This document shows positions 10,833 to 57,009 of a DNA stretch of 64,000 nt, in pieces. Made by a program: the position numbers and the translations under genes. Under the pieces are notes generated by a model, which saw nothing but the letters and a program-made list of their open reading frames with translations, was not told the DNA's origin and made no database searches. Location: positions 6,304,001-6,368,000 of the forward strand of contig CAVUSO010000001.1 of assembly GCA_963744145.1 (NCBI GenBank). Direction: 5' to 3'. Source of the DNA: an uncultured cyanobacterium (GTDB taxonomy: Bacteria > Cyanobacteriota > Cyanobacteriia > Cyanobacteriales > CAWUOF01). Each line of letters starts with the position of its first letter. Position 1 is the first letter of the stretch.

Positions 10833-10858
10833 TTACAACCGAGGCCAAATTAATTTTT

Positions 10859-11326: not shown

Positions 11327-11399
11327 GGAAAAAGAATCAGCATATTTTGTCGGTTAGATCAGCCAGGATAAGAAAATCCTGGCAATATTGCTAGTGAAG

Positions 11400-11523
11400 T
11401 AGACCTCTTGCAAAAGTCCTTATTGATCTATTTATTGACAGGCAAGATGCCTGTCCCACCAGAAAAAATCACTTTTGTGGGACAGGCATCTTGCCTGTCC
11501 TATTTATTTTTGCAAGAGGTCTA
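11400..11523. mobile_element. 124-bp MITE with 16-bp perfect terminal inverted repeats enclosing an inverted REP pair
   Basis: TAGACCTCTTGCAAAA ... TTTTGCAAGAGGTCTA; REP units at 11437-11459 (minus) and 11477-11499 (plus). Confidence 0.8.
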
Positions 11524-11527
11524 GTGA

Positions 11528-12292: not shown

Positions 12293-12471
12293 TGCTGCTC
12301 CGAAATCCCTAATTCTATATAACTGTAAACCCGCTCATGGTAATTGGTTTGAGCGTTTAGGCGGATACTTGACTATCCTGTCTGAGCTTGACAAATTTTT
12401 ACCGCGCTGGCAGACTACCGAGCTACATGGGTGAGAAAAGCCCTGCGACTAAAATCGCAGTCAAATTTTTA

Positions 12472-12480
12472 TGTTATAAT
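12472..12480 (+). promoter_or_regulatory. Extended -10 promoter candidate for the rimP operon
   Basis: TGnTATAAT consensus upstream of rimP. Confidence 0.45.
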
Positions 12481-12617
12481 AAATGCTGTTATATCAGACA
12501 TTAAAACCTGCCCTCGAACTGAGGTAATTGCGACTGGGCTCACAGCAAGGCTCAAGGTAAACCTTTTCAGCAGTGGGAATGTCAAAAACTTCGTTTTTTT
12601 TGTTAGAAATCAAAAAA

Positions 12618-12646
12618 AGAAGTGGGTCAATGCCCACTTTTTTTTT
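12618..12646 (+). promoter_or_regulatory. rimP leader hairpin (attenuator-like)
   Basis: AAGTGGG-tcaatg-CCCACTT followed by a T run, just before the rimP RBS. Confidence 0.65.
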
Positions 12647-12662
12647 GTTGGAGGGCATTATT

Positions 12663-13124
12663 ATGACACATCCTATCATCCCACAAATTATTGATTTGGC
12701 CACACCCGTTGCCCAAGCATTAGGATTGGAGGTGGTCGGAGCAGTTTTTCATACCAACCAAAACCCCCCAGTGCTGCGAGTAGATATCCGCCATCTCCAG
12801 CAAGGCACCAGTCTAGATGACTGTGAGCGGATGAGTCGAGCCATGGAAGCAACCCTAGATCAGATGGACATTATTCCCGATACCTACGTACTAGAGATTT
12901 CCAGTCCGGGAATTGATCGCGAATTAAGTACAGATCGAGAATATATCTCATTTAAAGGATTTGCAGTAATTGTGAAAACTGCCACACCAGTAGAGGGCAA
13001 AAGTGAATGGCTCGGACAATTAATCGGTCGGGATGAAGAGAAAGTATATCTCAATCAAAAAGGACGAGCGATCGGCCTACCCCGACAACTAATTACCAAG
13101 GTACAGCTCGACGAACGCAGATGA
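12663..13124 (+). CDS. rimP: Ribosome maturation factor RimP
   Basis: LDDCERMSR and [14 protein letters not shown] motifs; upstream of nusA. Confidence 0.95.
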
Positions 13125-13182
13125 ACAGGTTGATATCTGTGCCCCAACCAAATTATCCCCAATCTTCCAGGAGGTTTTTTCT

Positions 13183-14427
13183 ATGTCAATAGTCCGTCTG
13201 CCCGGACTCAAAGAAATGATCGACAACATCTCTCAAGAGCGAAACTTACCTAGAAACGCAGTTCGAGAAGCCCTAAAAGAAGCATTAATCAAAGGGTATG
13301 AGCGATATCGTCGCACGATCAGCATCGAGCGCCCCTACTTTGACGAAAATTACTTTGACAATTTTGAAGTCGAACTTGATGTTGAACAAGAAGGTTTTCG
13401 GATTCTGGTCACCAAAACGATCGTCGAAAGTGTCAGTAGTGCTGACCACCAAATTTCCCTAACTGAAGTCCAAGAAGTTGCGCCCGAAGCCCAACTAGGA
13501 GACACCGTCATTTTAGACGTGACTCCTGAACAGGGAGAATTTGGGCGGATGGCGGCGATCCAAACCAAACAGGTACTTTCGCAAAAACTGCGAGATCAAC
13601 AACGCAAACTGATCCAAGAAGAATTTCAAGATTTAGAAGATCCAGTTCTCAACGCCAGAGTGTTGCGGTTTGAAAGACAATCAGTCATTATGGTCGTCAG
13701 CAGCGGTTTTGGCCAACCAGAAGTAGAAGCCGAACTGCCCAAATATGAGCAATTACCCAACGACAACTATCGCGCCAATGCTACCTTTAAGGTATATCTG
13801 AAAAAAGTCTTTGAAGGTTCGCGTCGTGGCCCTCAACTCCAAGTTTCTCGCGGTGCTGCGGGATTAGTCGCCGAATTATTTGCCAATGAAGTCCCAGAAA
13901 TTCAAGACGAAATTGTCAGAATTGTCGCCGTAGCCAGGGAAGCCAATCCACCTTCCCGGTATGTTGGTCCGCGCACCAAAATCGCCGTCGATACTCTAGA
14001 ACGAGATGTCGATCCGGTTGGTGCTTGTATCGGAGCCAGGGGATCACGAATCCAAGTAGTAGTCAACGAATTACGAGGAGAAAAGATCGATGTCATCCGC
14101 TGGTCTCCCGATCCAGCCACCTATATTGCCAATGCCTTAAGTCCTGCCCGAGTAGATGAGGTACGATTAATAGACCCCGATCGCCGACAAGCTCATATTC
14201 TAGTATCAGAAAATCAACTTAGTTTAGCCATTGGCAAGGAAGGACAGAATGTGCGTTTAGCAGCCCGGTTAACGGGTTGGAAAATCGATATTAAAGACAC
14301 AGCTTTGTATGACTACGAAGCCGAAGATAACAAAATCGCCCAAGCCGGCCAAGCCAATCTGTCAGAACCAGATGATGAGTATGATGAAATTGAGGAAGAA
14401 TTAACTCATAAGGAGACAACTGCATAA
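13183..14427 (+). CDS. nusA: Transcription termination factor NusA
   Basis: FGRMAAIQTKQ, DPVGACIGARGSRI and LAIGKEGQNVRLA motifs. Confidence 0.97.
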   Translation: MSIVRLPGLKEMIDNISQERNLPRNAVREALKEALIKGYERYRRTISIERPYFDENYFDNFEVELDVEQEGFRILVTKTIVESVSSADHQISLTEVQEVAPEAQLGDTVILDVTPEQGEFGRMAAIQTKQVLSQKLRDQQRKLIQEEFQDLEDPVLNARVLRFERQSVIMVVSSGFGQPEVEAELPKYEQLPNDNYRANATFKVYLKKVFEGSRRGPQLQVSRGAAGLVAELFANEVPEIQDEIVRIVAVAREANPPSRYVGPRTKIAVDTLERDVDPVGACIGARGSRIQVVVNELRGEKIDVIRWSPDPATYIANALSPARVDEVRLIDPDRRQAHILVSENQLSLAIGKEGQNVRLAARLTGWKIDIKDTALYDYEAEDNKIAQAGQANLSEPDDEYDEIEEELTHKETTA

Positions 14428-15062: not shown

Positions 15063-18000
15063 ATGAACAACGCCAAAGTCAGAATTTACGATCTATCAAA
15101 GGAATTGAATTTGGATAATAAGGACATATTGGCCGTTTGCGATCAGCTAAATATTGCGGTCAAAAGCCATAGCAGCACGATTACAGAATCAGAGGCGGAG
15201 CGGATTCGCAATACGGCTGCCAAAGTAGTGGCCAACCACTCCCCTCGTCGCAGTGCCAGCAGTGCAGCCCCACCCGCCGTTCCTGCTAAACATCGGGACC
15301 ATTCTCTCCCAGCAGAGTCCGCCTCGCGGCCAAATGTACGCAAAAAACAAGAGATTTTGGAGGTTCGTCAACTGCCAACTCCCCGCCCAGGGCCTAATCC
15401 CAAACCCCAGGGAGAAGGGGGTGGGGCAAAACCATCGGGGTTAGCTCCTGTCCCTCCCCAGCCCCCAGCCAGTCAGCAAATGTCAGCATCTATGAAGCCG
15501 GCGGCACCAAATCGACCTGTATTACAAAAATCCGTACTCCCTAATACCCCCCCCATAGGAGAGCCTGTCAGTTTGCCCGATCTTGACCAAGAAGAGGTCG
15601 AGATGACGCTATCAGCAGAGGGTGAAACCAAATCGGAACTGGTTAACCCCCCACCAAGACCAGTGATAACGCCAAATCGTGGTTTATTGACTGGTGCTAA
15701 TCGACCAGTTTTAAAAAAGGCCAAGACTGAAAAACCGGAAAAGACATCCAGCGATTCAGTGGCTACACCCCCACCGCCCACCCGTTCCGAGAATGCACCA
15801 GCACCGAAAAAGCCTCGTAATCGTAGTAATCAACAATCAGGTGCATCGGAACGTCATCCCATTGCAGCACCAAATTTGGAACTGCATCGACCGCGACCAG
15901 TTCTTAAACTGGAACGCGATCAGGTAGTTCCGGAAATTCCGACTACCCCAGCCCGGGATGTTGATTCTGAACCTGATGACGATTTACTCATCCTCAATCG
16001 ACCGACCCCACCACGTCCACCAAAACGGGCGAAAAAACGGGAGGAAGAAGATGATGATATGACCGAATTGGGCGATAAAAGCCTGAAAGCTGGTGCGAAA
16101 GCCAAACGACGGACGAAACCAGCTATTGACGATGACGATGATGATTTTGAAAGTGATCTGGATGAATTGGGTGCAACGGTGCAGGTAAGTCTATCTGTTG
16201 CCCGTCCAGCTAAACCCAAAGGTCGTCCAGCAGCGGCTGTTGCTACCCTCGCTCCGACGGCTAAAGGTCCTGAAGTTGGCCAGTTCCCAACGGGCGGCGG
16301 AAATGTCCAAAGCTGCTCGTCGGGAACGTCGTGAACAAGCTGGCAAAAAAGAACGTCCAGAACTGATTACCCTGACGGGGCCACTAACTGTTCGAGAATT
16401 GGCGGCGGTAATGGTGATCCCGGAAACAGAAATTGTGAAAAAGCTGTTTTTTAAGGGGATGGCAGTCCAAATTACCCAAACCTTGGATGTTCCTACTGCC
16501 ATGATGGTGGCTGAAGAACTAGGAGTTTTGGTAGAAACGGCAGCACCAGAATCAGAAGCAATTAAATCCACAGAAATGCTGGATGCGGAAGACATGGAAA
16601 GTCTTCAACGTCGTCCACCAGTAGTGACAATTATGGGTCACGTTGACCATGGGAAAACTACTTTGCTTGACTCCATTCGCAAAACGAAGGTGGCGCAAGG
16701 AGAAGCAGGTGGGATTACTCAGCATATTGGTGCTTATCATGTTGATGTTGAGCATAATGGCGAAACTCAACAAATTGTCTTCCTTGATACTCCTGGTCAC
16801 GAAGCCTTTACGGCCATGCGAGCGCGTGGGGCAAGGGTGACGGATATTGCGATTCTGGTGGTGGCAGCAGATGATGGTGTTCAACCCCAGACCATTGAAG
16901 CGATTAGTCACGCTAAAGCGGCTGAAGTGCCGATTATTGTGGCTATTAATAAGATCGATAAAGAGGATGCTAATCCCGATCGCGTTAAACAAGAGTTAAT
17001 GGCTCATAGTCTGGTTTCGGATGAATGGGGTGGTGATACCACGATGGTGCCGGTCAGTGCGATCCGCGGTGAAAACTTGGATACCCTGCTGGAAATGATT
17101 CTTTTGGTCGCAGACCTAGAAGAATTATCAGCTAATCCCGATCGCTCAGCCCGAGGAACGGTGATTGAAGCTAACTTAGATAAATCTCGCGGTCCGGTAG
17201 CAACTCTATTAGTCCAAAATGGCACCCTCCACATTGGTGATATCCTGGTGGCAGGTTCGGCGATGGGTAAGGTCCGGGCGATGATTGATGACCGGGGACA
17301 CCGTGTCGAAGTCGCTGGTCCCTCTTTTGCCGTAGAAGTCCTTGGTCTGGGGGATGTGCCCGCAGCTGGGGATGAGTTCGAGGTGTTCCAAAATGAGAAA
17401 GAAGCTCGGGCGATCGCCGAAGCTCGCGGTGAGGCTCAACGTCAATCTCGTCTGCTTCAAGGTCGAGTTACCCTTAATACCCTCTCGGCTCGCGCTCAAG
17501 AAGGTCAGCTGAAGGAACTCAATTTGATTCTGAAAGCGGATGTCCAAGGTTCCGTGGAAGCGATTATTGGTGCCCTCAGACAACTGCCCCAAAATGAAGT
17601 GCAATTACGTGTTCTCTTAGGTGCCCCAGGCGAAATCACGGAAACTGATATCGATTTGGCTGCGGCTAGTGATGCGGTAATTATTGGCTTCAATACTACT
17701 CTGGCTACAGGAGCGCGGCAAGCAGCTGACCAAACTGGTGTAGATGTGCGCGAATACAATATCATCTATAAACTGTTGGATGATATCCAAGGTGCCATGG
17801 AAGGTCTGCTCGAACCGGAACTGGTGGAAGAATCCCTCGGTCAAGTTGAAGTCCGACAAGTATTCCCCATTAGTAAAGGAGCTGTCGCTGGTTGTTATGT
17901 TCTGTCTGGTAAAGTGATCCGCAACTGTAAAGTCCGGATTCGCCGCAGCGGTAATGTGATCTATGAAGGTACTCTTGATTCACTCCGACGCATGAAAGAA

Positions 18001-18129
18001 GACGCTAAAGAAGTCAATGCTGGATATGAATGTGGGATTAGTATCAATAATTTCCATGACTGGGCGGAAAATGACATTATGGAAACCTTCCGGATGGTAG
18101 CAAAACGTCGCACCTTATCTCCTAATTAG
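15063..18129 (+). CDS. infB: Translation initiation factor IF-2, with an apparent frameshift near 16200-16320
   Basis: N-domain [11 protein letters not shown] in ORF 15063-16334; G-domain [13 protein letters not shown] and NKID in ORF 16198-18129. Confidence 0.93.
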
Positions 18130-19871: not shown

Positions 19872-22800
19872 TTAATTACCTTCAATTACTGCTTCTGCTG
19901 CAAGAGCGATCGCTCGTAATTTATCTAACATTAGATGATCCACTTCTTCCCACAAACCACGCTGATGCGCTTCTAATAATCTTTCCGCAATATCTCGTAA
20001 AGCCCAAGGATTTTTTTCCTGAATGAATTGCTGTACAGTTGAGTCAAGTAAGTAAGCTTGTGCTATTCCTGTATACATAAAATCCTCTACACAACTAGTA
20101 GTAGCATCATAAGCAAATAAATAATCTACTGTTGCGGACATTTCAAAAGCTCCTTTATAACCATGACGCATTACTCCAGCAATCCATTTGGGATTAATCA
20201 CTCGACTCCGATATACTTTAGCTATTTCTTCTTTTAAATGACGAATTTTTGGATTACTAGGGAGGGAATTATCTCCAAAATAAATTTCTGGATTTTGACC
20301 ACTAATCGCTCTGACTGCTACCGTTAAACCACCCTGAAATTGATAATAGTCATCCGAATCAAGTAAATCATGTTCACGGTTATCCTGATTATGGAGAACA
20401 ACTTGCAGATCTTTTAAACGTTGGATAAATGCTTCGGGAGCTGATACTCCATCCTCTCCGACTCTGGTAGATGTATAAGCATAAGAACTCCAGTTAATAT
20501 AAGCGCGAGCTAAATCTTGCTCATCAGTCCAATTTTGTGCTTCAATTAAACCCTGCAATCCCGCTCCATAAGCACCTGGTTTAGAACCAAAAATCCGATA
20601 ACTCGATCGCATCTGCGCTTGTTCTGGTGTTAATCCTGCATTCTCCCACATTTTCCGTTCTTGTTTTACCTTTGCAGCTAAAGGATTTTCCTCGATCGGT
20701 TCATCTAATTCAGCTACTACTCTGACCGCGCGATCGAATAAATCGATTAAATTCGCAAAAGCGTCTCGGAAAAAACCAGAAATTCGCAAAGTGACATCTA
20801 TTCTTGGACGTCCTAAAGCAGAGAGAGCGATAATTTCTAGATCGATCACCCTTCTCGATGGTCCGATCCCAAACTGGTTGTACTCCCAACAATGCGATCG
20901 CTTCCGCAATATCATCACCCCCAGTTCTCATGGTGGAAGTTCCCCACACTGATAACCCGACTGTTTTTGGATATTCTCCATGTTCTTGGACGTAACGTTC
21001 AATCAAATTCTCTGCTGCAATTTTACCTACACTCCAAGCAGTTTCCGTCGGTATTGCCCGAATATCAACTGAATAAAAATTAACACCTGTCGGTAAAACA
21101 TCTGGACGACCCCGGGTTGGGGCTCCAGCGGGACCACTAGGGACATAATCACCATTTAATCCGCGTAAAAGATTAACTATTTCTTGATTAGTTTGTTGTA
21201 GTGCTGGAAGTAAGCGATCGCTAATCCACTGTAATTCCCGTTGAGTGTGAATATATTGGTGTATATTAATACTTGGTAATGATTGGTGGATTAACTCTTC
21301 TACTAATTCAGCCGCTTTTTCTTCTAAAACTGCAATTACATCACTAATTCGCGTCCAAGATTGGTCAAAAATAGTAATTGGGGAGCTAGTTAACGTGAGA
21401 TCAACTGTCAACGGATCGAAATCTAACCCTAAGTCTTGAGCTAAAGCACGAGTAATTCCCAAACGTTCCTTTCCAGGATGACGCGCGATCGCGACAATTA
21501 AATCTCGAAGCTGACGACCCTGGGGACATTGACCAAAAATATGCAATCCATCCCGAATTTGTGCTTCTTTCAATTCACACAAATAAGCATCAAGTCGATT
21601 TTCAAGTAGGGATTTGTGATGGTTAACTTCTGCTAGCTTAATCCCTAAATCTTGATCGAGTTTTTCTTGAATCACTAATTGCACAATCCGTTCACGAATT
21701 AAGGGTAATCGGGATGGATCTAAACTTTCAGCTTGATAGTATTCATCCATCAGACTTTCTAACTGTTGTAACGGTCCATACAACTCAGCTCGAGTCATGG
21801 GAGGAGTTAAGTGATCAATAATAACTGCGTTAGCTCGTCGTTTTGCTTGAGATCCTTCTCCTGGATCATTAACAATAAAGGGATAAAAATGAGGTAAACA
21901 ACCATGAGCTACTTCCGGATAACATTGAGCGGATAAAGCTACACTTTTACCAGGGAGCCATTCTAAATTTCCATGTTTACCTAAATGGACAATTGCATGA
22001 GCGCCAAAATTTTCTCTAATCCAATCATAAAAAGCTAAATAAGCATGGGGAGGTTCTAAATCAGGAGCATGATAATTTAAACTCGGATCAAGATCATAAC
22101 CTCGACTTGGTTGAATCCCGACAAATATATTACCTAATTGGATACCCGCGATCGGAAATTTTTCCTGTTCCTGTGGTAAAGACCAGCGATCGCTAATTCC
22201 CGTTTGGACTGCCATGGGTAAAGTGGCAAAATAGGTTTGATATTCTGTTAAAGTAAGATATTGCCGGACCGATCGCAACTCTTTCCCTTCTGGATCATTA
22301 GTTACTCCAGAGGTTAAATCTTTAATTAACTCATCTCCGGAATTAGGTATATGATCAATGTCATAACCATTTACCCGTAATGCTTGCAGAATTTCGATAC
22401 AACTAGCAGGAGTATCTAACCCAACTCCATTAGCTAAACGTCCATCACGACAGGGATAATTAGCTAAAATTAGGGCAATTTTTCGGTTACTTGGTGAGGT
22501 TAAACGCAATCGGACCCAGTTAGCTGCTAAATCTGCAACAAAATTAATCCGCTCTAAGTGGGGAACATAACCTACCACATTAGTTTGCAATACTGGATGC
22601 CAATTTTGGACAGCTTTAAAAGAAACTGCTCGACTAATAATATTCCCATCGACTTCTGGAAGTGCGATATTAATCGCTAGATCACGAGGAGAAAGTCCGT
22701 GAACACCTGACTCCCACTGGAATAAGGTTTCACTACTAAAAATTACTTGTAGTGTCGGGATATTGAGTCGGGAAAATAGGGGAGGAGCGGAAACTAATTT

Positions 22801-23652
22801 TTTTCCCCGATCATTTACTCCGAGATGATCGTGATGCAAATTTCCACTGATGGAAAAACTTGTGGTATTCAGTAATAGCTGAATCGGAGTCGAATCGGTT
22901 GGTTGGAAATATTGAGCAAGTTCAGCTTGGATCTCTGGAGTCCGTAACGAAGAGACAAAGACGGGAATCGGTTGTAATTTTCGGGTGAGCAACTCTTGAC
23001 AAAGTGCATCAATCGGCGCTAGGTTGCCTGCTAAATAGTGAGCGCGATAAAAGATAATTCCGACTTTAGGATATAATAAATGGGTAGGAATGGCTTGATT
23101 CGGCCCAGAATAAAGCCCAAACTGAGGAATTGGTTGGGGATGTGGAGGATGATAGGATTCGCGATCGCAAACATCAGCGACAAATTTTAGAGCATTGAGG
23201 AAATTATCTTTACCACCTTCGGCAAAATAGCGCCAAATTTGGTTAACTATGGGTAGGGAAACTGTGGAGTGACTAATTAAATCGGGATCTGGGTGATCAT
23301 CTCCGGGAATCACAATTAAAGCAGCACCGGTGGTTTGGACTGTCTCTTTTACTACTTCTAAACCATAGGACCAGTAAGATCGACCACCGAGCAATCGCAA
23401 AATAATAATCCTTGCTTGAGCTAAAACTGATTCAGCATAATGATCAATGCTTAATTGTTGTTGTAGCTGTAGAATATTCACAGCTCGCAGATTCCTTAAA
23501 GATTCTGGTAAATGGGGGATTACCGTAGCTAGGGTTTGAATATCTGTATCCGCAGCTGTCAGAAAGATCAGAGGAGCTGGAGTTTGGTTAATGAAAATTA
23601 TTCCTTCTGCTGGGAGATTCTCTGTCCCAGCTGCGATCGCGAAACGATGCAT
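19872..23652 (-). CDS. cobN: Cobaltochelatase subunit CobN, with a +1 frameshift at about 20865
   Basis: HLGKHGNLEWLPGK, DHLTPP, GRPRIDV, HNQDNREHDLLDSDDYYQF and HGYKGAFE motifs across two ORFs. Confidence 0.93.
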
Positions 23653-24057
23653 GATCTTGTCCTTTTGGGGTGATCCCACCAGCTAATAACATATAGTCCC
23701 AATTCTAAATGTAATTTGATTTACCAAAGTAATTATGTTTTCTTAAACTTTTACTTACCGCTACAGATGTTAACGTCGATGTATAGATAATTCTAAATTT
23801 GGAACCTTGTCTATTTCAGGAGGATCTCAAGTCCGGGTTTAGGGTGTGATCATCTAGATTACTAGCTAAACACAAACATCTGATTGGTAAAGCCCCATCT
23901 TACCATAAGAGAAATATTTCCCTTATGCGTCTGTTTGGCTCTATTTGACCAAATGTTTAGTGTCCAGGGGTCTGGTCTTTTCCTATCCCCAGGAAAATGC
24001 TCAGTAACTGAAATCCACTTTAACCCATGGCTAAGGAATAGAAATTAAGTAATTTGC

Positions 24058-41764: not shown

Positions 41765-43306
41765 TTATTTCAGCATCTTGCTAATATCCACCAATAGTTC
41801 TCCGGCTGTTAATGCTGTTGGTGGTTTTATCATTGTGGATGGGGGTAATTTTTGGAGTAATTCCAAAGCGGTTTGACGCATTTTTCGGGATCGGGTTAGA
41901 TCTCCTTCGATTTCGTAGATAGAACTTAATTCTAAATAAGCGTAGATGGATGAAGGGGCTAGATAAATAATTCGTTTAAACAAAAGTTTTGCTTGCTCGA
42001 TCTTACCCTGTTCTTCGGCAATATGTGCTAATAGGTAATAAGGTGCTATGGACAGAGCATCTAAATTTAGTGCTAATTGACAATAGTAATGTGCTTTAAT
42101 ATATTCACCAAGATTTGCATAAGCTTGTGCTACTAAAGCATAAGCGTCAACATAATTTGGATCTAACTCGATCATTTTTTTAGCATTTTCGATCGCGGCT
42201 GGATAATCTTCATGTTGAAAAAACTGTTCAGTTTCAGCTAGAATGAGGTTTAGCGGTGAAACTGGATTTTCATTGGTTAAGTATTGAGGAGGTAAAACTC
42301 CTGAATTGAGTGGTTGAGAAACTGGGGTTTCTCCCAAAGATTGAATTGTTTTCGTTGGAGGAATTTGTGCAAATGGTAGGGTGGGATCAATAATTTGTTT
42401 GCTCAGATTTTTACTCTTGGTTAAACTCCCATTATTGAGATGAGAGTAAGATATTTCTGGTAACCAATTTTCCCGAAGTTGATAAATAATTGATTCAGCA
42501 AAAACTTTGGCTTCTAACTGACCCAGGTTTTGTCCGTGAAGTTCCGTGTGTCCTGTGATCAGATACCCTCCTGGTCTCAAGGTTTGCTGAAACTTTTTTA
42601 AAACTGTAGCGATCGCTTGATGCTCAAAGTAGATAAAAACATTACGACAGATAATTAAATCCATATTATGAATATCGATGGGATTAGGAAAGTAATCATG
42701 CACTAAATTACCATACCTAAATTTCACCATCTGACGAATTTTTTCATCAATTTGCCATAGGTTTTTTTGGTGATGAAAATATCGATTCTGTAAATCTGCA
42801 CCGACGAGACGAAATGACCAAGAATTATATATTCCCCGCTGGGCTTTTTCTAAAACTTCTACATTTATATCCGTACCAATAATAGTAATATTCCATTCTT
42901 GATGATTAGGAATTAACTCATTGAGCAAAATTGCTAAGGAGTATACTTCCTCTCCGGTAGAACATCCAGCACTCCAAATTCGTAGCGATCGCGCTTCTTT
43001 CTTGGTTTTAATTAGTTCTGGTAAAATCTGATTTTCCAGGAGTGTAAACTGTCCTCTATCTCGAAAAAAATAACTTTCTACAGTAGTTATTTGGATCTCT
43101 AAATCTTTCCATTCTTGTTCACTCTGATCAGTCTTTCCATCCAGCAAACCATAATATTCTTCTGGATTAGATATTTTTAATATTTTCATTCTCATCTCGA
43201 TTTTATTACATAATAATTCTCGATCTTGGGGGCGAATATATAAACCTGTGTGAGTCGATATCAATTGCCTAAAATTTTCGATTAATGCTTCTTTCATTGT
43301 CATCAA
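41765..43306 (-). CDS. cheR: CheR methyltransferase with C-terminal TPRs
   Basis: ESYFFRD, IWSAGCSTGEEVYS and CRNVFIYF motifs; TPR tail. Confidence 0.92.
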   Translation of the reverse strand: MMTMKEALIENFRQLISTHTGLYIRPQDRELLCNKIEMRMKILKISNPEEYYGLLDGKTDQSEQEWKDLEIQITTVESYFFRDRGQFTLLENQILPELIKTKKEARSLRIWSAGCSTGEEVYSLAILLNELIPNHQEWNITIIGTDINVEVLEKAQRGIYNSWSFRLVGADLQNRYFHHQKNLWQIDEKIRQMVKFRYGNLVHDYFPNPIDIHNMDLIICRNVFIYFEHQAIATVLKKFQQTLRPGGYLITGHTELHGQNLGQLEAKVFAESIIYQLRENWLPEISYSHLNNGSLTKSKNLSKQIIDPTLPFAQIPPTKTIQSLGETPVSQPLNSGVLPPQYLTNENPVSPLNLILAETEQFFQHEDYPAAIENAKKMIELDPNYVDAYALVAQAYANLGEYIKAHYYCQLALNLDALSIAPYYLLAHIAEEQGKIEQAKLLFKRIIYLAPSSIYAYLELSSIYEIEGDLTRSRKMRQTALELLQKLPPSTMIKPPTALTAGELLVDISKMLK

Positions 43307-43660
43307 ATTTATTTTAAGGGAGATAAAAGACGAAGAAAAAATAAAAATTTACCAAAAATCTTTAGGCCAGAAACATCAAAGATCATGATCCAAACTTGGG
43401 AAAGATATTTAGAGGCACCTCTTTAATTTCAGCCAACCATTTTCCCTAGAAAAGTTAATTAATTTGGTTTCACCTTTAACTTCATTATAACACAATACAG
43501 TTCAGTTAAGCTAGATCAGGCATATTTATGCTGACATTGGTTACTGATGCTTGTCTGCTCGTTTACTACAGTTAATACCAATTCTTAAAATCCTTAATTT
43601 TCAAATAATTCAATCATGATACCCCATTTAATACCTTTAATTTTCAAAATTTTACTTCAG

Positions 43661-46600
43661 TTATTTATCTTCATCAATAACACTTTTTAAATCTAAAGTC
43701 AATTGTCCAGGTTCTAAAAGCAATTCCTGTTGCACATAAACTACTTTGGCTTTAATCTCATCCATTGCTAACCATAAATTTAATAAGGCTTTTTCTTCAG
43801 GGATGCGTTTACGTTCGTCTCCGATGCGGGGGATAACTTTTAAGGCTATTTCCCAAGCTCGCATAAACCTATCATTGGTGATTAGTTCTGTGGCTTTCAT
43901 AAAACGGCGGATTGGTTCGATGGTTTGTTCTTGTTGATAAATAGCAATGATCGTGTGGAGTCCGTCAATCAGATAATGGGCAGAAAATTCATTGTCTACG
44001 ATCGAGAATGCGTGTTTTTTATAGCGTTGTTCAGGGCTGAGGAATTTACAAGTTCCGCTTTTGATGTCGAGGATTTTGTAACTTTTGCCTAGGTCAGCAA
44101 CATTGAAACCACCTACGGCTAGGGCAAGTTGTCGAGCGTCATCAAAGGGGAATTCGCGGGCGCGGAAAGCATCCCAAGCGAGGAAATACCATTGGCTAAC
44201 AGGGTCAAAACCCATGGTGTCAGTTTGAGCGAGTTTGCGGAAGCGGTAGTTAGCAACAGCTTTGCGAGCTTCAGCAAATGCAACTTCGGGGCGGACTTCG
44301 TTACCTGTACTATCAAGAACTGGCCAGGAGCGGGAAAAGACATTGAGAGCGGGACCAAAGGCACTGAGATAGAGATCGATCCCTTGAATATCATTGTCTT
44401 CAAATTCTGGGGCGCGTTGTTCGACTAGATTGGAGACTTCGGGGCGGAGGTCATCCCACCAGGCTTGTTCGGCGTTGGGGTCGCGTTTGCGGCACACAAG
44501 TAATACTGTACTAGCGACGGAGTTCTTTTGGGCTTGGTGGAGGTTTTGCGGGTTTTCGGTGCTGACTGACCATGATGCGGTGATCTCAAAGCCTGCATTA
44601 ATTAAGGAATATGCTAGGGTATCCCATGCTCCTGATTCTTTGTGATTGAATTGCACAGTCATTACCCCATCTTCTCGTAAGACGCGATGATATTCGGCAA
44701 ATGCCATTGCCATTTTTGCTTCATAATCTTGGTTAGCGAGTTCTTCGGGGGATACTCCCATATTGCGAAAGCGTGAGGGATTGGCTACGGCTTCGCGATC
44801 TTTGTCGGTGAGTTCCATCCAGAAGAGATCGGGGAAGATATCGCCGAGGGTGCGTTTTTGCCAAACATAGAAAAAATCTGATAGTTCAGCGTATTGGATG
44901 GTTGCGTAATAAGGTGGATCTGTGATAATTACATCTACTGAGTTATCAGAAATATGAGAAAGGTTATCAGCAGAAGCGGAGAAAATTTCAAGAGAATTTG
45001 TCCTTGTGGGTCGGGCATCTTGCCCGACATTTCCGATGACATTTCCCCTATCCTCAAACAAATCATTATTTGTTAATAGTTGTTCATTAGTTTCAGCAAT
45101 TGACAGGCTAGAAGCCTGTCCCACAATTTGAGATTGCCATAGGAAAACATAATCTTCAGGGGTTAGAGATAAACTGGCTTTTACAGGATTTTGCCTGATA
45201 TATTCCCAAGTATTAAAAAACTCTCTTTCATCTCGAATAATTCGATCATATCGGCGATCCTGCCAAACAGTACCAATATGATTCATCACCTTTGAAATTT
45301 GTTTAGCTGTATAGCTTTTAATACTGTGTAAAATATTTGCTGATGTCCAATATTCTCCCTCATTTTTTGATAATGGTTCCAACAATAAATGCACATGGTC
45401 AGGCATAACCACTGCACAGTATAACTGATATCTTTGATCATTAAAGAATCGACAAGCATCTAAAACAATTTGTCTAGCTTCAAGTGTTAACTCAATTCTC
45501 TCAATCGTATTGAAAGTAATAAAGTATATAGAACCATTCAGTTCCCAGTGTGGAAGTGTACCCCAATTGCTGTAAGTAATTTTCAAGTTTGGATTTAGAT
45601 ATATTTCATCATCATCATTCCTTGTGGGTCGGGCATCCTGCCCGACATTTCCACCATCATCATTAACAATCAAACTGCCATTAATAACTAAATTATTGTT
45701 ATGAGTAGCTAATTTGTTATGATCATTGGTAATTGACAGGCTAGAAGCCTGTCCCACAAAATTAAGATTAAAAAGTATTCTGTTATCCTCCGTACCTAGC
45801 AAATTACAAAGATTTTGATAATCTGAGGCAAAAGCATCAGCACAGGAATTCCAGAGTTCACCTTTCCCACTAATTTCTGGATAATTCCACATTAAGTTTA
45901 ATGAGTGTTGTGCAGATGCTGTCTTAGAGCCGGCTCTTGAGGAATCCCAATGGGCTAACCTACAATTCGTGTCAGCACAACGATCTAATACTAACCCTAA
46001 ATAAGTGGCGATCGCCTCAACTTTATTCTGATAGTATAATTCAATATTTGCGATCGCCCTCTGGATATCCTCTACTTCTGGATTAGATTTTAATTTGGCG
46101 ATCACTGTTTCTTTTTCTTCTTCACATTCATCCTGAATTAGTGATTTTGCTTCATTGATAATTTCTAAATATGTAACAAGAGTTAAAAGTTGGCGAGAAT
46201 TGAAATAATCTAGGCTTTTTGCTAAACCATAAGCAATACATCTATCTGAAAAACCATCAAATCTTTCTTCTACTGGCAAAATTCCACTTGCTTTTAAATA
46301 ATCTAACTTCTCATTCAAATAAATTACTACTTTATTAATTCCGTCAATATCGATCTGAGTTGGTATTCTAAAATCTAAACTAGCTTTGCCTTTACGATAG
46401 GCTACAGCATACAAATGATGTCTAAAATTACCCGCCAAAGCTTGAGATTTAATTACATCATCTTCGATCACATTGTCGCAATTAGGACATCTACCAACGC
46501 CCCGACCAATAGTAGTTGTTGTATCCGGATCATATTCTCCATCATCAGTTTGAATAGTTGTTCCTTTTCCCTTCTTCCCCTTCACCAATTCAAAATCAAC

Positions 46601-47341
46601 CCGCTTATTCTCAGGGTTAGGAATTGGCTTGACTGCACACCATTTATGTAAATTCTGCTTTTCTGGACGTTTATATAACCACCAATTCGGACTCAAAGGT
46701 ACAACCGATTCACAATTCGGACAAACCACCGTATGTGCCCACAGATAATTCTGTACAGTTTCCCCAGGTAAAGAAGGGAAAAACTCCGCTAATCTTTTCT
46801 CGGCTTCATCACCTACCCACTTCACCCATTGATCAATATCCTGCTGCAAATCCGGTCCAAACTTTAGGGGATATTCCATCGCAGCTTTCATCGTCACAAC
46901 AGCGACAGGATTCAGATCCGATGCTAATACATTAAACCCATATCTTGCTGCTTCAAAGGGAATACTCCCACCCCCCGCAAACGCATCTAAAACTGTAGGT
47001 GTACGAGTTCCCCACAATTTTTCACAATAATCCTGCACCTTTTTAATTCTCAATTTACCAGGAGGTGTTTTATACAACTTAATATCAGGATCTGGTTTCA
47101 AACCTTCTTGTTCTGGGTACAAACCTAACAGATATTTAAACTCCTCCATTGTTACATCCCCAGGTAACAAGGAAGCTAACACACTGGCTCGACTAAAGGA
47201 CAAAGGTTTGCGCGAATACCACCGATGTAAACCCTTAAACGGATTACCCCCATGTTCGTAATATACCTGCTCGTTGAGTAACTTCACGGGCATAATTTTT
47301 TCAATAAAAACTTGAGGACGGTGGGAACTAGAGTTAGTCAT
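43661..47341 (-). CDS. DUF1156-family adenine DNA methyltransferase with an in-frame RAYT transposase domain
   Basis: LHRWYSRKP, LDAFAGGGSIP (motif I), CPNC Zn ribbons and TDPPYY (motif IV); inserted residues about 529-780 contain an HUH-Y1 transposase. Confidence 0.9.
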   Translation of the reverse strand: MTNSSSHRPQVFIEKIMPVKLLNEQVYYEHGGNPFKGLHRWYSRKPLSFSRASVLASLLPGDVTMEEFKYLLGLYPEQEGLKPDPDIKLYKTPPGKLRIKKVQDYCEKLWGTRTPTVLDAFAGGGSIPFEAARYGFNVLASDLNPVAVVTMKAAMEYPLKFGPDLQQDIDQWVKWVGDEAEKRLAEFFPSLPGETVQNYLWAHTVVCPNCESVVPLSPNWWLYKRPEKQNLHKWCAVKPIPNPENKRVDFELVKGKKGKGTTIQTDDGEYDPDTTTTIGRGVGRCPNCDNVIEDDVIKSQALAGNFRHHLYAVAYRKGKASLDFRIPTQIDIDGINKVVIYLNEKLDYLKASGILPVEERFDGFSDRCIAYGLAKSLDYFNSRQLLTLVTYLEIINEAKSLIQDECEEEKETVIAKLKSNPEVEDIQRAIANIELYYQNKVEAIATYLGLVLDRCADTNCRLAHWDSSRAGSKTASAQHSLNLMWNYPEISGKGELWNSCADAFASDYQNLCNLLGTEDNRILFNLNFVGQASSLSITNDHNKLATHNNNLVINGSLIVNDDGGNVGQDARPTRNDDDEIYLNPNLKITYSNWGTLPHWELNGSIYFITFNTIERIELTLEARQIVLDACRFFNDQRYQLYCAVVMPDHVHLLLEPLSKNEGEYWTSANILHSIKSYTAKQISKVMNHIGTVWQDRRYDRIIRDEREFFNTWEYIRQNPVKASLSLTPEDYVFLWQSQIVGQASSLSIAETNEQLLTNNDLFEDRGNVIGNVGQDARPTRTNSLEIFSASADNLSHISDNSVDVIITDPPYYATIQYAELSDFFYVWQKRTLGDIFPDLFWMELTDKDREAVANPSRFRNMGVSPEELANQDYEAKMAMAFAEYHRVLREDGVMTVQFNHKESGAWDTLAYSLINAGFEITASWSVSTENPQNLHQAQKNSVASTVLLVCRKRDPNAEQAWWDDLRPEVSNLVEQRAPEFEDNDIQGIDLYLSAFGPALNVFSRSWPVLDSTGNEVRPEVAFAEARKAVANYRFRKLAQTDTMGFDPVSQWYFLAWDAFRAREFPFDDARQLALAVGGFNVADLGKSYKILDIKSGTCKFLSPEQRYKKHAFSIVDNEFSAHYLIDGLHTIIAIYQQEQTIEPIRRFMKATELITNDRFMRAWEIALKVIPRIGDERKRIPEEKALLNLWLAMDEIKAKVVYVQQELLLEPGQLTLDLKSVIDEDK
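45003..45760 (-). mobile_element. REPtron-like unit (REP doublet, RAYT/TnpA-REP domain, REP doublet) in frame within the methyltransferase
   Basis: RAYT motifs LPHW, YFITF, VVMPDHVHLL, WQDRRYDRIIR and EYIRQNPVKA at about 45134-45585; REPs at 45006-45028, 45102-45124, 45624-45646 and 45735-45757. Confidence 0.88.
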
Positions 47342-47477
47342 AATTAATTTTCGAGTAAGTGAAGTAAAAAGAAATTACCCCTTGACTTTCCTGGGTAATT
47401 GCTATACTATAGCATCATGGGAATCTGTGCCGACCTATAAAGTAAGTTAAATTTAGTAAAATAATAATTTATCCTGA

Positions 47478-47803
47478 TTTTGATCGTCATCTACCAGAAA
47501 ATATCATCAACGATTTGAGCAATCCAACTCCACCTCAAACTTCTGAAGAATTAGGCTGGTCTTCGGTTTTTTTTGAATAGATGAACCACCAAGGCACCAA
47601 GGCACTAAGGTTAGGAAGTTTGGTCCGATCGCTTCTTCGTGTCTTGGTGTCTTGGTGGTAAAAATCTCATGACTGTTACCTCTGAAGAATTAGGCTGGTC
47701 TTCTGGTTTTTTTTGAACAGACAGCAGGATGTTTAGCTGATGAGCTATTGGTGCGATATCCCCAAGGTGAATATGAGATCAGAGAGGAAATCGAATGATT
47801 TAC
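47478..47803 (+). pseudogene. Degraded antitoxin-like gene, internally duplicated, followed by a truncated ATGATTTAC start
   Basis: EELGWS.GFFEQTAGCLADE.LVRYPQGEYEIREEIE-stop with frameshift; direct repeats at 47542-47580 and 47681-47720. Confidence 0.5.
47585..47659. repeat. Hairpin element built from 9-mer CACCAAGRC units
   Basis: ACCACCAAGGCACCAAGGCAC ... GTGTCTTGGTGTCTTGGTGGT. Confidence 0.7.
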
Positions 47804-47817
47804 AGAGGATTTCTATA

Positions 47818-47956
47818 TTGATGAAGTACAGTAAGATTGTGGGACAGGCATCTTGCCTGTCAGTCAGTTAAAGTCGATTGTGATTGATCTGTGTTGGTTG
47901 GGCGGGTTTATGATGGTGATCGGTTTGTCACAAAATTAATTGGTGAACCCGCCCCT
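47818..47956 (+). repeat. About 140-bp dispersed composite repeat, copy 2
   Basis: Contains an intact REP GTGG-GACAGGCA-TCT-TGCCTGTC at 47839-47861 and runs out into AACCCGCCCCTAC. Confidence 0.8.
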
Positions 47957-48300
47957 ACAAATCCCGGTTAATTGTAATCATAAATTTATCGACCATCTAT
48001 TATGATCATCTAATTTAATCTTGATGGTCTGGGAATTATTCCCTTGGTCATACAATTGCACCGCCCAACCTTACAGATCACATGGATGAATCCACCCCAT
48101 CTGACTAACGGAGATGGTTAAAATTTAATATATTTATTTTGTCTATAGCTTTGAAACAGAGAAAGAGTATAGCGATCGATCATAACTCCCGAATTTTCAT
48201 AAATTGCAGCGATCGCACATTCAAATTCAATCCTAGCAAACTGCACCAGATCACCAACGACCTGGGGTGTTAATTCCCACTTGCTCTGCTAGTCAGAATT

Positions 48301-49770
48301 TTAATAATTAGGATCAGACTGAGGGAGTTGAGGTTGAGGTGCTTCAGGAATTAGACGTGCTACTGCTTGCTTTACAAAAGACTGTAAAAAAGCTACTTTT
48401 TCGTTTTGCTGAAAAACTTTTTGCACAGTTTCACCCAATTTCTTTAAGTTTAAACCACTAGATTCTGGGCTATTTACATCCTGTGCTTGGAAATATTCAA
48501 TTAAACTTAATCCTGCTAATCGAGTTAAATAAGCAGCACTGATTCCCTGGGCTAATCCACCGGCTACATAGGTAATTGCATTACTTTTTAATATACTGCT
48601 AATGGTTTGAGTTGAAAGTTCTACTAACCCTAATTGTAACATTAATTTACCCAATGTTACCGCTAAAGTTTGGGCTTGTTGGAGGGAAAATTTTTGGTGA
48701 TAAATCCCACCTAAATCAACCACTAATTGAGCATTAATTGCTGCTGTTGCTAATAAATCTAGGGCTGGAAATGGATTAGCAAAAGCTGTAGCTGCGGCAA
48801 TCCATTGTGATTGTTCAATGATTGGTAGAGCCCGATCGCGTCGCACTCCATTTAATACTAACTTGACTTCAGCTTGGGTAGTTTGAGCAGCACGTAAGGT
48901 GGTAGACCAAACTAATTTTTGACCTACACTATTCAGAATTTGAGTTAAGCGATGAGTAAGTTCTTTAATCTCTGGGGTGGGTTGTTCTAACCATTCTTTT
49001 ACGCTCCGATCGGGTTGATGTTGCATAACTTTACGCGGATCGGGTAAAGTCGCGATCGCCACTACATCGGACTCATCAATTATTCCCTTAACTCGCTGTT
49101 TGAGTTGCTGTAAGATGATGGTGCGTTCGGTCGGTAAATATTGATCTTGCTTATTAAACACTAAGACTATATGCACCGCAATTTGGGCGAGTTTCTGTAA
49201 GATTTGATATTCAGGTTCAGTTAAATCTCCATTAACTACAAATAAGACTAAATCCGAGGCGATCGCCAGATCCAGGACTTCTTTTTCTGCGGTCATTTCC
49301 CCATCATCACTGACAAATAATGATGGTGCTTCCTGAAAAATGAGGGGTGTTTTTTGTCTTGCACCTGTCAACAGTTTTAGCAAGGTACTTTTACCGACTG
49401 ATTTACCACCAATAATCCCCAGACGTAGCTCAATTCGCTCTAATTCAGTTGTAATTTGGGCAATTGTCTCTTGGAATTTCCCATTAGCATCAAAACCGGG
49501 TGTTTCTGCTTCCAGCAGTGCGATCGTCTTGGTTGTTTCTTTAATTGCTTGTTCTACTGTAGTTCGTTCGATCAACTGGGGTGATGATAGTAGTTCCATT
49601 TGGGTAGTCTGTTGTTTCGACCACCAGATCACTGTCCCAATGGCGATCGCACCCAATACCAGGATCTCGTCCAGATTCTCGATGGAGTTATGTAAACTCT
49701 CCCATATCCATAATGCAATCGATATACCAATTCCACCAATTAAAATGGGTCGTCGCCAGGTTAGAGTCAT
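48301..49770 (-). CDS. YcjF/DUF697 family protein with a GTPase-like domain
   Basis: GGKSVGKST, VFNKQD, ANPFPALDLLA and QGISAAYLTRLAG motifs. Confidence 0.85.
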   Translation of the reverse strand: MTLTWRRPILIGGIGISIALWIWESLHNSIENLDEILVLGAIAIGTVIWWSKQQTTQMELLSSPQLIERTTVEQAIKETTKTIALLEAETPGFDANGKFQETIAQITTELERIELRLGIIGGKSVGKSTLLKLLTGARQKTPLIFQEAPSLFVSDDGEMTAEKEVLDLAIASDLVLFVVNGDLTEPEYQILQKLAQIAVHIVLVFNKQDQYLPTERTIILQQLKQRVKGIIDESDVVAIATLPDPRKVMQHQPDRSVKEWLEQPTPEIKELTHRLTQILNSVGQKLVWSTTLRAAQTTQAEVKLVLNGVRRDRALPIIEQSQWIAAATAFANPFPALDLLATAAINAQLVVDLGGIYHQKFSLQQAQTLAVTLGKLMLQLGLVELSTQTISSILKSNAITYVAGGLAQGISAAYLTRLAGLSLIEYFQAQDVNSPESSGLNLKKLGETVQKVFQQNEKVAFLQSFVKQAVARLIPEAPQPQLPQSDPNY

Positions 49771-55444: not shown

Positions 55445-57009
55445 ATGTTTCTAAATCGCAGATCCTTACTAAGAGCTTTCTTGCTGGGTTTAACTTCTCC
55501 ATCTTTATTACGGGTTGTAGTATCCTTACCAAAAAATGAATTATCCAGCGTCAAAGATTCCCATAACTCTAAAAATCCCACTGTCCTCGAAAACAAAAAA
55601 CTAGGAACTTCTGAATGGAAACTAACTAACCCAGCTCGCAACAGAGAAATCGAAGGTTATGCTTCTCTGACCAGTGTGAATCGGGGTGAACCAATTAAAT
55701 TGTTTGTTAATACTGCTGATCCGACCTATACTATTGATATTTTTCGGATGGGATGGTATAATGGCGATGGTGGGCGTCGAGTAACTAACTCCATTACTCG
55801 GACAGGAATTAGGCAATCACCACCCATTGAGAAAGATCGATCAGGATTGATTGAATGTAACTGGCAAGATCCTTACATTTTAAATATACCTAATGATCTG
55901 GGAGATCCGACTAATTGGGCGAGTGGATTTTATTTAGCTAAGTTAACAGGTAACAAATCTGGTAAACAAAGCTACATTATCTTTGTTGTTCGTGACGATC
56001 TGCGGGTTTCTGATATTTTATTTCAATCTAGTGTAACTACTTTTCAGGCATATAATAATTGGGGGGGAAGATTCTTTATCGGTGGAATAGTAAAGGTAAA
56101 CAAGCTTATAAAGTTTCCTTTAATCGTCCCTATGCACCTAGTCCTAACCCAATTGCTGCTTATGGAGTTGGTGCTGGTGAGTTTTTAACTAATCTGCAAC
56201 CCAAACGAAGAACCCCAAGTTCAGGGTGGGAATATAATTTGGTACGCTGGTTAGAACGTGAAGGGTATGATGTGACCTATTGTACTAATATTGATACTCA
56301 TTTTGATCGTCAATTACTGTTACCTCATCAAGCGTTTTTTTCAGTAGGTCATGATGAGTATTGGTCATGGGAAATGCGTGAAAATGTGGAAAATGCTCGC
56401 AATCAAGGCATAAATTTATGCTTCTTTTCTGCGAATACTTGTTATTGGCAAATTCGGTTAGGAACTAGCCTCATTACAGGAGATGTAAATCGAACTATTA
56501 TTGCTTATAAAGAAATGATAGATTTAGATCCGTTTGGACACGATCGCGATCGCAGTAACGATCGTAAAATTACTACCCTCTGGCGCAAACAACCAGTAAA
56601 TTATCCAGAAGATGCTTTAATTGGAGTGATGTATGAAACATTTAATGTACATGGAGATATTGTGATTGATCAGGCTCCAGATTGGTTACTTGCAGACACA
56701 AAATTAACCAAAGGGGATCGCTTACCAGGATTATTAGGTTATGAAGTAGATCGAATTTTTGGGAATGCTCCTGGGAATTTGATCCGGATTGGTCATTCAC
56801 CCTATTCTCATAAAGGTGGTACACGCTACTCGGATATGACTCTTTATTATACTCCTAAAGGAAGTCTAGTTTTTGCCGTAGGTTCTATGCAATGGAGTTG
56901 GGGATTAGATGACTATAATGCTCCCCTCTTACGTCCATCGGTACTTAATCCTGCGGTCCAAACCTTAACTCGGAATCTGATGGCAAGAATTTTAAAACGT
57001 TCAACCTAA
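55445..57009 (+). CDS. N,N-dimethylformamidase beta-subunit-like (DUF6605) protein with a Tat signal; frameshift at the G7 run 56061-56067
   Basis: NRRSLL signal; IEGYAS, FRMGWY, TFQAYNNWGG, SFNRPY and SVGHDEYWS motifs across two ORFs. Confidence 0.8.

Follow-up and report, generated by a model that had tools for sequence, protein, structure and literature searches.

Repetitive extragenic palindromic (REP)-associated tyrosine transposases (RAYTs, or TnpA-REP) are usually discussed as single-copy, free-standing and vertically inherited genes that are possibly domesticated, and their benefit to the cell is debated. The Escherichia coli enzyme TnpA-REP acts as a monomer. This analysis concerns a RAYT that, with REP doublets (REPINs) on its two sides, forms a REPtron translated within a host protein rather than from a free-standing gene. 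It lies in a 64,000-nucleotide stretch of DNA from an uncultured cyanobacterium (contig CAVUSO010000001.1; hereafter the window, whose numbering is used throughout), inside the gene for a DUF1156-type N6-adenine DNA methylase. The REPtron is probably a non-splicing, in-frame passenger, produced as one domain of the host protein rather than as one half of an enzyme designed as a methylase–nuclease.

Free RAYTs act on a REP hairpin together with a GTAG-type guide, and cleavage takes place at dinucleotides chosen by the guide (PMC8266576). In E. coli TnpA-REP, the GTAG guide is contacted by residues W94, Q95, E100 and R104 (PMC6006769). Quentin et al. 2018 describe their subclass 2.7 as cyanobacterial, its flanking REPs being long and having a 5′ GT[AG]G foot; the same paper records REPs inside tnpA-REP itself, and states that unexpectedly long proteins were discarded as 'gene fusions or annotation errors' (PMC6006769). 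That REPtrons are normally free-standing, as the original prediction for this locus held, agrees with the accounts given in the RAYT literature (PMC6006769 among it).

Short in-frame REPs were reported by Di Nocera et al. 2013, who described them as extra residues of proteins, notably those of replication and repair genes and tRNA synthetases, and suggested that they sit in flexible linkers (PMC3733652). Arsenault et al. 2025 described the ShiLan element as a non-splicing, in-frame homing insertion in a phage DNA methylase (PMC11855218). The original prediction could not tell whether RAYT–methylase fusions were already catalogued. Databases do hold them, under automatic double names only (for example, 'adenine-specific DNA methylase/REP element-mobilizing transposase RayT'). 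A search of the full-text literature, RAYT papers included, turned up no account of RAYTs inside host proteins; supplementary lists (Di Nocera's Additional file 3, Quentin's length filters) may contain unremarked cases.

A REPtron inside a DUF1156 methylase

The host gene is a single open reading frame (ORF) at 43661..47341 on the minus strand that starts with ATG, encodes 1226 amino acids (aa) and contains no internal stop codon. The original prediction of one uninterrupted 1226-aa frame stands once the strand is given as minus, the translation of the plus strand being full of stops. Every motif position in that prediction was recovered in the protein: FAGGG at aa 121–125, HVH at aa 649–651, WQDRRYDRIIR (predicted as WQxxxYDRIIR) at aa 693–703, YIRQNP at aa 714–719 and DPPY at aa 808–811. 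On the coding strand, the gene runs from methylase aa 1–515 (45797..47341) through the left REPIN (45620..45759, translated as aa ~529–574), the RAYT core (aa 586–737; 45131..45586) and the right REPIN in the same orientation (45002..45126, translated as aa ~740–780) to methylase aa 786–1226 and the stop codon (43661..44986). REPIN, RAYT and REPIN account for the whole insert. The two REP doublets bracket the transposase core, as had been claimed, and each is read as a peptide of the form VGQASSLSI...GNVGQDARPTR.

The DUF1156 domain, motif I and motif IV of a DUF1156 methylase are present, divided between the two sides of the insert. The N-terminal part holds the DUF1156 domain (aa 17–61; 31.8 bits in Pfam), S-adenosylmethionine motif I (FAGGG, 46967–46981, minus strand; within a D12-type motif I match at aa 114–164), two CxxC pairs and a variable middle region. 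The C-terminal part is matched by Pfam N6_N4_Mtase (aa 802–956) and contains catalytic motif IV (DPPY, 44909–44920, minus strand), and Y1_Tnp is matched between the two parts, at aa 633–717. At the level of sequence, both sets of active-site motifs are intact in a single polypeptide, just as the original prediction maintained.

The insert proved to be a genuine RAYT accompanied by its cognate REPINs. The earlier proposal that it should match Y1 transposase profiles held for NCBIfam NF047646 (REP_Tyr_transpos), which scored 95.3 bits with the whole protein and 100.5 bits with the domain alone (cut-off 80), but not for Pfam Y1_Tnp, which scored 22.6 bits against a cut-off of 23. As Pfam alone leaves RAYT membership marginal, membership was settled by the NCBIfam model together with sequence and fold searches of the Protein Data Bank (PDB). 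The insert matched the sequence of E. coli TnpA-REP (PDB 4ER8) with an E-value of 2e-4. In an AlphaFold (AF2) model of aa 516–790, which was built with 56 free-standing relatives, the RAYT core had a predicted local distance difference test score (pLDDT) > 90. The top Foldseek match of the modelled core in the PDB was again 4ER8 (E 9e-9, TMt 0.68, root-mean-square deviation 3.0), and the next matches were the TnpA transposases of IS200, IS608 and ISDra2.

The HUH residues (H649-V-H651; 45389–45397) and the catalytic tyrosine (Y714, in YIRQNP; 45185–45202) of the window RAYT occur in the right order and spacing. Both features survive in 166 of the 168 relatives classed as embedded or long, and in 68 of the 69 free ones. 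With the correspondence taken from the 4ER8 alignment, the guide-contact residues are W693, Q694, D699, R700 and R703 (the WQ..D..R block; 45233–45265), and these are kept in 11/11 copies at the methylase site occupied here, referred to as site B. Among the subclasses of Quentin et al., the motifs are closest to subclass 2.7: DHVH, WQ and YIRQNP fit the printed consensus [ND]HVH / WQ / YI[LR][NQ]NP, and the D and R found at the positions of E. coli E100 and H101 are substitutions reported for subclasses 2.5 and 2.7 (PMC6006769).

Each REP doublet reads, on the coding strand, as a GTGG-footed hairpin (REP-B), a spacer and an inverted hairpin (REP-A) that ends in CCAC. In the left REPIN, REP-B (GTGGGACAGGCTTCTAGCCTGTC) spans 45735–45757 on the coding strand and the inverted REP-A spans 45624–45646, with its GTGG foot on the plus strand; in the right REPIN, REP-B spans 45102–45124 and the inverted REP-A 45006–45028 (minus strand). 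The B copies of the two doublets are identical over 29/29 nt, and identity between the A-containing 50-mers is 84%. The hairpin patterns are far more frequent than chance would allow, with 4 and 7 matches compared with 0.01 and 0.02 expected from shuffles. As a single strand, each REPIN folds into two 8-bp hairpins with a closing stem, TTGTGGG/CCCACAA. The fold of the left REPIN has an energy of -28.1 kcal/mol (z -5.5) and that of the right REPIN -24.9 kcal/mol (z -5.9), and in each case 0/200 shuffles were as stable. The borders of the RAYT domain are thus marked by four GTGG-footed hairpins that make up two REPINs, as expected of cognate REPs. Cognate REPs likewise flank the RAYTs of two other genome loci (L033 and L034) and the free-standing RAYTs of two more (L046 and L054).

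Three further copies of the REP family lie in the window outside the methylase gene. Pattern matching placed two inverted copies (GTGGGACAGGCATCTTGCCTGTC) in intergenic DNA at 11437..11499, and a further copy on the plus strand at 47839..47861, ~500 nt upstream of the methylase start codon. Among 75 genome loci, the same REP pattern was found only in L033 and L034, both of which have the clade-I RAYT, and in L024. One copy of the family lies inside an SNF2 helicase ORF (10903-14103) in L033, a Chamaesiphon locus, at L033:11740-11762.

The original prediction that the RAYT domain has neither an ATG nor a stop codon of its own was borne out: codons 500–640 contain no in-frame ATG, and the domain is continuous with the host ORF. 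The in-frame candidate starts ahead of the RAYT core are TTG 514, GTG 529, TTG 557 and TTG 586, and no purine-rich stretch was found before TTG 586. The window RAYT is therefore not a free-standing gene with its own start and stop. Across the 270 codons of the insert, the host frame contains 0 stops, while each of the other five frames contains 9–39. The REPINs contribute 118 REP-derived codons, and both REP linkers stayed open in 1/20,000 shuffles. In the AlphaFold models, these REP-encoded flanks have pLDDT < 50.

The RAYT core is under strong purifying selection. In comparisons of the window with the in-frame copies of L034 and L033, the ratio of nonsynonymous to synonymous substitution rates (dN/dS) was 0.08 and 0.04, respectively, for the RAYT core and 0.05–0.13 for the methylase parts, with ~0.05 for the methylase C-part against L033 and L043. 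The REP linkers gave near-neutral ratios of 0.52–0.99, yet their frame is open. As dS is saturated, all of these ratios are rough; dN itself was 0.10–0.17 for the RAYT core and 0.48–0.60 for the linkers. Neutral evolution of the insert, which had been named beforehand as grounds for abandoning the original prediction, is contradicted by a core dN so far under that of the linkers. The terminal branch of the window RAYT is 0.095 substitutions per site long and carries no catalytic changes.

Site occupancy, other hosts and gene context

Occupancy of site B was scored from the spacing between the W[ND]YPE and DPPY anchors in the 120 best methylase homologues (P numbers) of 4029 matches among 8000 scored candidates, of which 107 were scorable. 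The site is empty, with a spacing of 69–77 aa, in 95 of these 107. Among the 120, a RAYT occupies the site in 7 (P0001, P0003–P0006, P0008 and P0010), REP peptides only in 3 (P0091, P0092 and P0117) and a DUF559 nuclease in 2 (P0028 and P0043); the 13 unscored homologues, at 926–987 aa, are too short for a RAYT-sized insert. Each fused RAYT has its own kind of REP-derived flanking peptides, namely VGQASSLS/GQDARPT, SKRDACAD/AQASSLQ or VAQPSRLQ/SKPEACAT. In none of the 7 fused homologues does a Met align at the start of the RAYT domain or a stop at its end.

With the linker removed, a methylase tree of 123 rows requires no fewer than 7 gains or losses to account for its 10 RAYT-bearing rows. 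The closest relatives of these rows have no insert: P0001 and P0002 share 90% identity, and P0003 and P0057 share 92%. P0003 and P0006 have the same sequence (100% identity) over the 250 aa that follow DPPY, whereas their RAYTs are 62% identical, have different REP peptides and fall into separate IQ-TREE subclades (support 95/98 and 98/96). All site-B RAYTs belong to one 22-row IQ-TREE clade (99/99), which also holds free-standing RAYTs (L046, P0237, P0239 and P0241) and RAYTs embedded in Eco57I-type methylases (P0124 and P0125). Simple vertical co-divergence of RAYT and methylase was rejected, on the basis of the P0003/P0006 case and a Spearman coefficient of 0.19 (p 0.065) between pairwise identities.

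Five of the 75 genome loci hold this RAYT, in frame in L033, L034 and L043 and as a separate gene in L046 and L054. The L046 RAYT (L046:10001-10426) is free-standing, begins with a Met and ends in a stop of its own; it sits between the DUF499 and DUF1156 genes, 284 nt upstream of the methylase (10710-13695). In L054, the separate RAYT (L054:10001-10462) lies ~1.7 kb upstream of the methylase. These two free RAYTs are of the same clade and have their own GTAG/GTGG REPs.

DUF1156 methylases accept insertions at other places as well. A second in-frame RAYT site (site A) is found in distant DUF1156 relatives, between P0002 aa 192 and 199; a location of site A within the Zn-ribbon loop was ruled out, as pairwise alignment puts it before the ribbon. 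The Zn-ribbon loop (P0001 aa ~257) is a third location of in-frame REPINs, seen in P0003 (alignment columns ~300–350) and at L034:10795-11267, where the insertion carries a tandemly expanded ~20-aa unit. A DUF559/Vsr-like endonuclease (PF04480) was seen in frame at the same methylase linker as the window RAYT in P0028 and P0043, and at L001:1060-1658 and L061:11731-12428. The DUF559 cassette has another palindromic repeat on its flanks, translated as 'PP.PP..KGG.GG', and is preceded in L061 by the REP-derived peptide VAQASRLQT; it appears to be a second type of in-frame nuclease cassette for the methylase site. In the distant DUF1156 protein P0139, with which P0137 is listed, a GIY-YIG and a RAYT domain share one polypeptide (aa 228–294 and 392–529).

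Embedded RAYTs are also found in host proteins other than methylases. The RAYT domain gave 2489 matches at E <= 1e-10 against 1.84 billion representatives. By length, the best 150 of these comprise 95 of <= 260 aa, 18 of 261–400 aa and 37 of > 400 aa, and in the 55 that exceed 260 aa the RAYT domain is mostly internal. A tblastn search of the domain against 72,556 plasmid records returned nothing at E <= 1e-10. When the RAYT segment was searched against proteins of 674–2146 aa, 143 matches were obtained among 267 candidates, and hosts were tallied by hand from the Pfam column for the 120 listed. DUF1156 methylases account for 33 of the 120, Eco57I-type methylases for 4 and other methylases for 11; class-I tRNA synthetases (ValRS/IleRS) account for 24, AlaRS and PriA for 11 each, RecG and PurH for 9 each, and DnaK, SerA and another helicase for 1 each, with 5 lacking a listed host domain.

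A RAYT domain was confirmed in 123/123 long proteins examined, with > 80 residues on each side in all but four, the exceptions being contig-end fragments such as P0121, P0131, P0144 and P0145. Host domains flank the RAYT on both sides in 10/10 re-scanned representatives, and in 5/10 (ValRS, AlaRS, Hsp70, PurH and RecG) a single host Pfam model is matched in two stretches. In a FastTree phylogeny of 237 RAYT domains, sampled by similarity to the window RAYT, 10/11 PriA RAYTs form one clade (support 99), and PurH RAYTs form another (support 95). RecG RAYTs are similarly grouped together, and AlaRS RAYTs form two clusters that correspond to two insertion positions, ~330 and ~455.

The best PADLOC match of the window methylase is HmaB (251 bits). 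With this 'anti-phage-associated' DUF1156 methylase (PADLOC HmaB; NF042963) it shares the DUF1156 N-domain and the order of motif I then motif IV. In contrast with that family, the window copy scores 218 bits, under the NF042963 equivalog cut-off of 1000 (P0002 scores 243.5), has neither DUF499 nor SNF2 within 64 kb and carries the 270-aa cassette. Its relatives are encoded in an operon in which a DUF499 ATPase and the DUF1156 methylase are joined by a small ORF and an SNF2 helicase, and which is present in L002, L033, L034 and L046; L033 and L034 are RAYT-bearing. Neither DUF499 nor SNF2 was found near the window methylase among the 24 window ORFs scanned, and its neighbours encode CheR-TPR, PBP2, CheW and a DUF697 GTPase. 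In two loci, the methylase frame is split into 2–3 ORFs (L034:10001-14173, with a change near 11475, and L046:10710-13710, near 11900); these broken frames may be pseudogenes or errors of metagenome-assembled genomes.

P0002, an insert-free homologue of 978 aa, is presumably a paralogue in the same genome as the window gene. The window protein and P0002 are 98–99% identical over aa 1–300 and 900–1050, 96% identical over aa 1050–1226 and 52% identical over aa 300–400; across the methylase C-part, identity to P0002 is 93–99%. Judged by these identities, the window protein is a mosaic relative to P0002, of the pattern that would be expected from swapped target-recognition regions or from gene conversion of the ends.

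The window as a whole has the character of cyanobacterial DNA (60 HIP1 octamers, 40.5% G+C). Genes for CobN (19872-23679, minus strand), IF-2 (15063-18129, plus strand) and a DMFA2_C-family protein (55445-57009, plus strand) are each split into two overlapping ORFs, which reflects either sequencing indels or real frameshifts; the break in the DMFA2_C-family gene falls on a G7 run. Three split genes within 64 kb point to homopolymer errors in the assembly. Two copies of a direct repeat of ~37 nt lie in the 960-nt region upstream of the methylase start (47540-47716, minus strand). An Rfam scan of 43000-48500 (E <= 0.1) revealed no group I or II intron, and its two sub-threshold matches, to a miRNA family and a Clostridioides sRNA, are regarded as chance; the weak mir-5881 match at 47578-47668 is far under the gathering score and was taken as such.

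A probable passenger in the methylase and its alternatives

The original prediction offered two readings of the fusion, of which that of a tolerated coding insertion is the better supported, in a stronger and more general form, whereas that of a methylase–nuclease fusion that couples methylation to REP processing or defence found no specific support. Tolerated insertion is favoured by the finding of a RAYT with its REPINs, by purifying selection, by patchy occupancy in close relatives and by the occurrence of such RAYTs in unrelated host proteins.

It is proposed that the REPtron settled in a permissive surface linker of the DUF1156 adenine methylase, with the W[ND]YPE helix region on one side and motif IV on the other. 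Having lost its own start and stop codons, the element would be transcribed and translated as an internal domain of its host, with the host gene supplying both transcription and translation and the REP DNA being translated as two disordered peptide linkers. No splicing would be involved; rather, the methylase would tolerate the looped-out domain and its halves would remain under selection. The RAYT domain would stay active as a REP-specific endonuclease and strand transferase for single-stranded DNA, and presumably binds and cuts single-stranded, GTGG-footed REP hairpins as free RAYTs do. Such a lifestyle would resemble that of inteins and homing elements: an in-frame passenger with its own lineage at each insertion site, where it may be gained, lost and replaced. 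Movement could occur by RAYT-mediated strand transfer from REP to REP, in which case REP-only sites may be landing pads or scars, or by homologous recombination between methylase alleles.

Several points weigh against this proposal. What the sequences show is the anatomy, RAYT membership by model and fold, purifying selection, recurrence at one site, patchy occupancy and embedded relatives in other hosts; that the gene is expressed as a fusion, that both moieties are active and how the element moves are steps that we infer. The window copy is a solitary paralogue without DUF499 and SNF2 partners, so its own methylase function may be dispensable. The full-length AF2 model is of moderate quality (mean pLDDT 67.6, predicted TM-score 0.45), and as aa 740–857 around DPPY have pLDDT < 50, it is too weak to judge domain packing and silent on tolerance of the insert by the methylase active site. 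Just 30/123 long proteins have the same peptide of 5 aa or more on the two sides of the RAYT, which limits the claim of universal REP read-through to the cyanobacterial set. The long-protein sample can show in-frame cases alone and not disruptive insertions, and the FastTree phylogeny has few columns for its 237 rows, with 96/231 inner branches unresolved. Furthermore, mosaic recombination blurs the co-inheritance of methylase parts and insert.

The fusion might instead be the selected unit, an exapted bifunctional enzyme in which the methylase, or a defence system, recruited the RAYT as a module for binding hairpins or nicking single-stranded DNA (ssDNA), perhaps so that methylation or restriction is directed to ssDNA that is REP-like or replicating. 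One polypeptide contains both motif sets intact, both parts are under purifying selection, RAYTs are associated with DUF1156 methylases in several ways (in frame at sites A and B, and as free-standing neighbours in L046 and L054), and other nuclease domains (DUF559 and GIY-YIG) occur in frame within the same proteins; the DUF499–DUF1156–SNF2 operon also has no universal nuclease in the loci scanned. A recruited domain would, however, need no REPIN copies on both sides, and 95/107 scored homologues work without an insert. The insert is present or absent between methylases that are 90–92% identical, and a different RAYT lineage can sit on an identical backbone. The same RAYT group is moreover found in tRNA synthetases, PurH and DnaK, where coupling to methylation would be senseless. 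Recruitment of this kind is accordingly considered unlikely.

It is improbable that the in-frame cassette merely spares the host ORF while the active RAYT arises separately, from an internal start (TTG 586 or GTG 529) or by proteolysis. Codons of the TTG and GTG type do lie in frame ahead of the core, the same clade contains free-standing relatives of 155–228 aa, and one database ORF (P0121) has its start called at a Met where the RAYT core begins, although its contig measures 3.8 kb. No Met or start position is conserved in the 7 fused homologues, however, and TTG 586 is not preceded by a purine-rich stretch. As the domain ends without a stop in all 7, an internally started product would still carry the methylase C-part.

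Decay has also to be considered, with the window gene as a redundant paralogue of P0002 that received an in-frame REPtron by chance and in which neither moiety functions. The 3.7-kb ORF is intact and keeps all of its motifs, chance is a very improbable cause of a frame that stays open across 118 REP-derived codons, the operon-embedded copies of L033 and L034 share the architecture, and the window RAYT has a short terminal branch (0.095) with unchanged catalytic residues. These observations make a decaying orphan quite improbable, even for a gene that lies outside the usual operon, presumably has a second, insert-free paralogue (978 aa) in its genome and shares 64 kb with three other apparently frameshifted genes. 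An assembly or annotation artefact, such as a chimeric join or a mis-called ORF, is hardly credible: frameshift-like breaks elsewhere in the window do suggest imperfect assembly, but the junctions are REP-bounded and cleanly read through, and the same in-frame arrangement at the same site in independent records from other organisms makes misassembly unlikely.

Relation to known insertions and wider meaning

We tentatively suggest that a passenger REPtron of this type may represent a mobile-element class not previously described, in which RAYT/REPtrons live as non-splicing, in-frame domains of conserved genes (for DNA methylases, Val/Ile/Ala-tRNA synthetases, PriA, RecG, PurH and DnaK), form site-specific lineages, are expressed within the host protein alone and are gained, lost and swapped at the site. 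If this is true, such elements would be the transposase counterpart of inteins; the host would supply promoter and ribosome, and hosts such as PriA, RecG and methylases would also deliver the element to DNA.

RAYTs that exist as conserved internal domains of host proteins would have changed options for expression, regulation and retention, and would offer a new example of selfish DNA that persists by making its imprecise loss costly. For annotation, they are a warning that over-long methylases, synthetases and helicases may hide an active ssDNA nuclease. Embedded RAYTs would also mark natural, evolution-tested permissive insertion sites in host enzymes, and RAYT function would become testable with the host protein as the read-out.

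As with the in-frame REPs already known, there are occupants of the methylase site that consist of REPs only (P0091, P0092 and P0117). Reports of in-frame REPs concern short repeats only, whereas here the transposase itself is embedded, conserved and divided into host- and site-specific lineages. The locus resembles an intein in being a fixed-site, in-frame insertion in a conserved protein, with site-specific lineages and patchy occupancy. Inteins carry a LAGLIDADG or HNH endonuclease, whereas the window insert carries an HUH-Y1 ssDNA transposase, and no intein or Hint splicing domain is among the Pfam matches (E <= 0.01) of the 1226-aa protein.

With inteins and with ShiLan, as the latter has been described, the REPtron shares an in-frame position in a conserved gene, patchy presence at one site and a nuclease cargo. 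The likeness to ShiLan extends to the host, which is also a DNA methylase, and ShiLan is reported to lack stops in the host frame and predicted to loop out (PMC11855218). In that description, the HNH gene of ShiLan is out of frame with its host (PMC11855218), whereas the HUH-Y1 ssDNA transposase of the window is read in the host frame and its flanks are REP palindromes.

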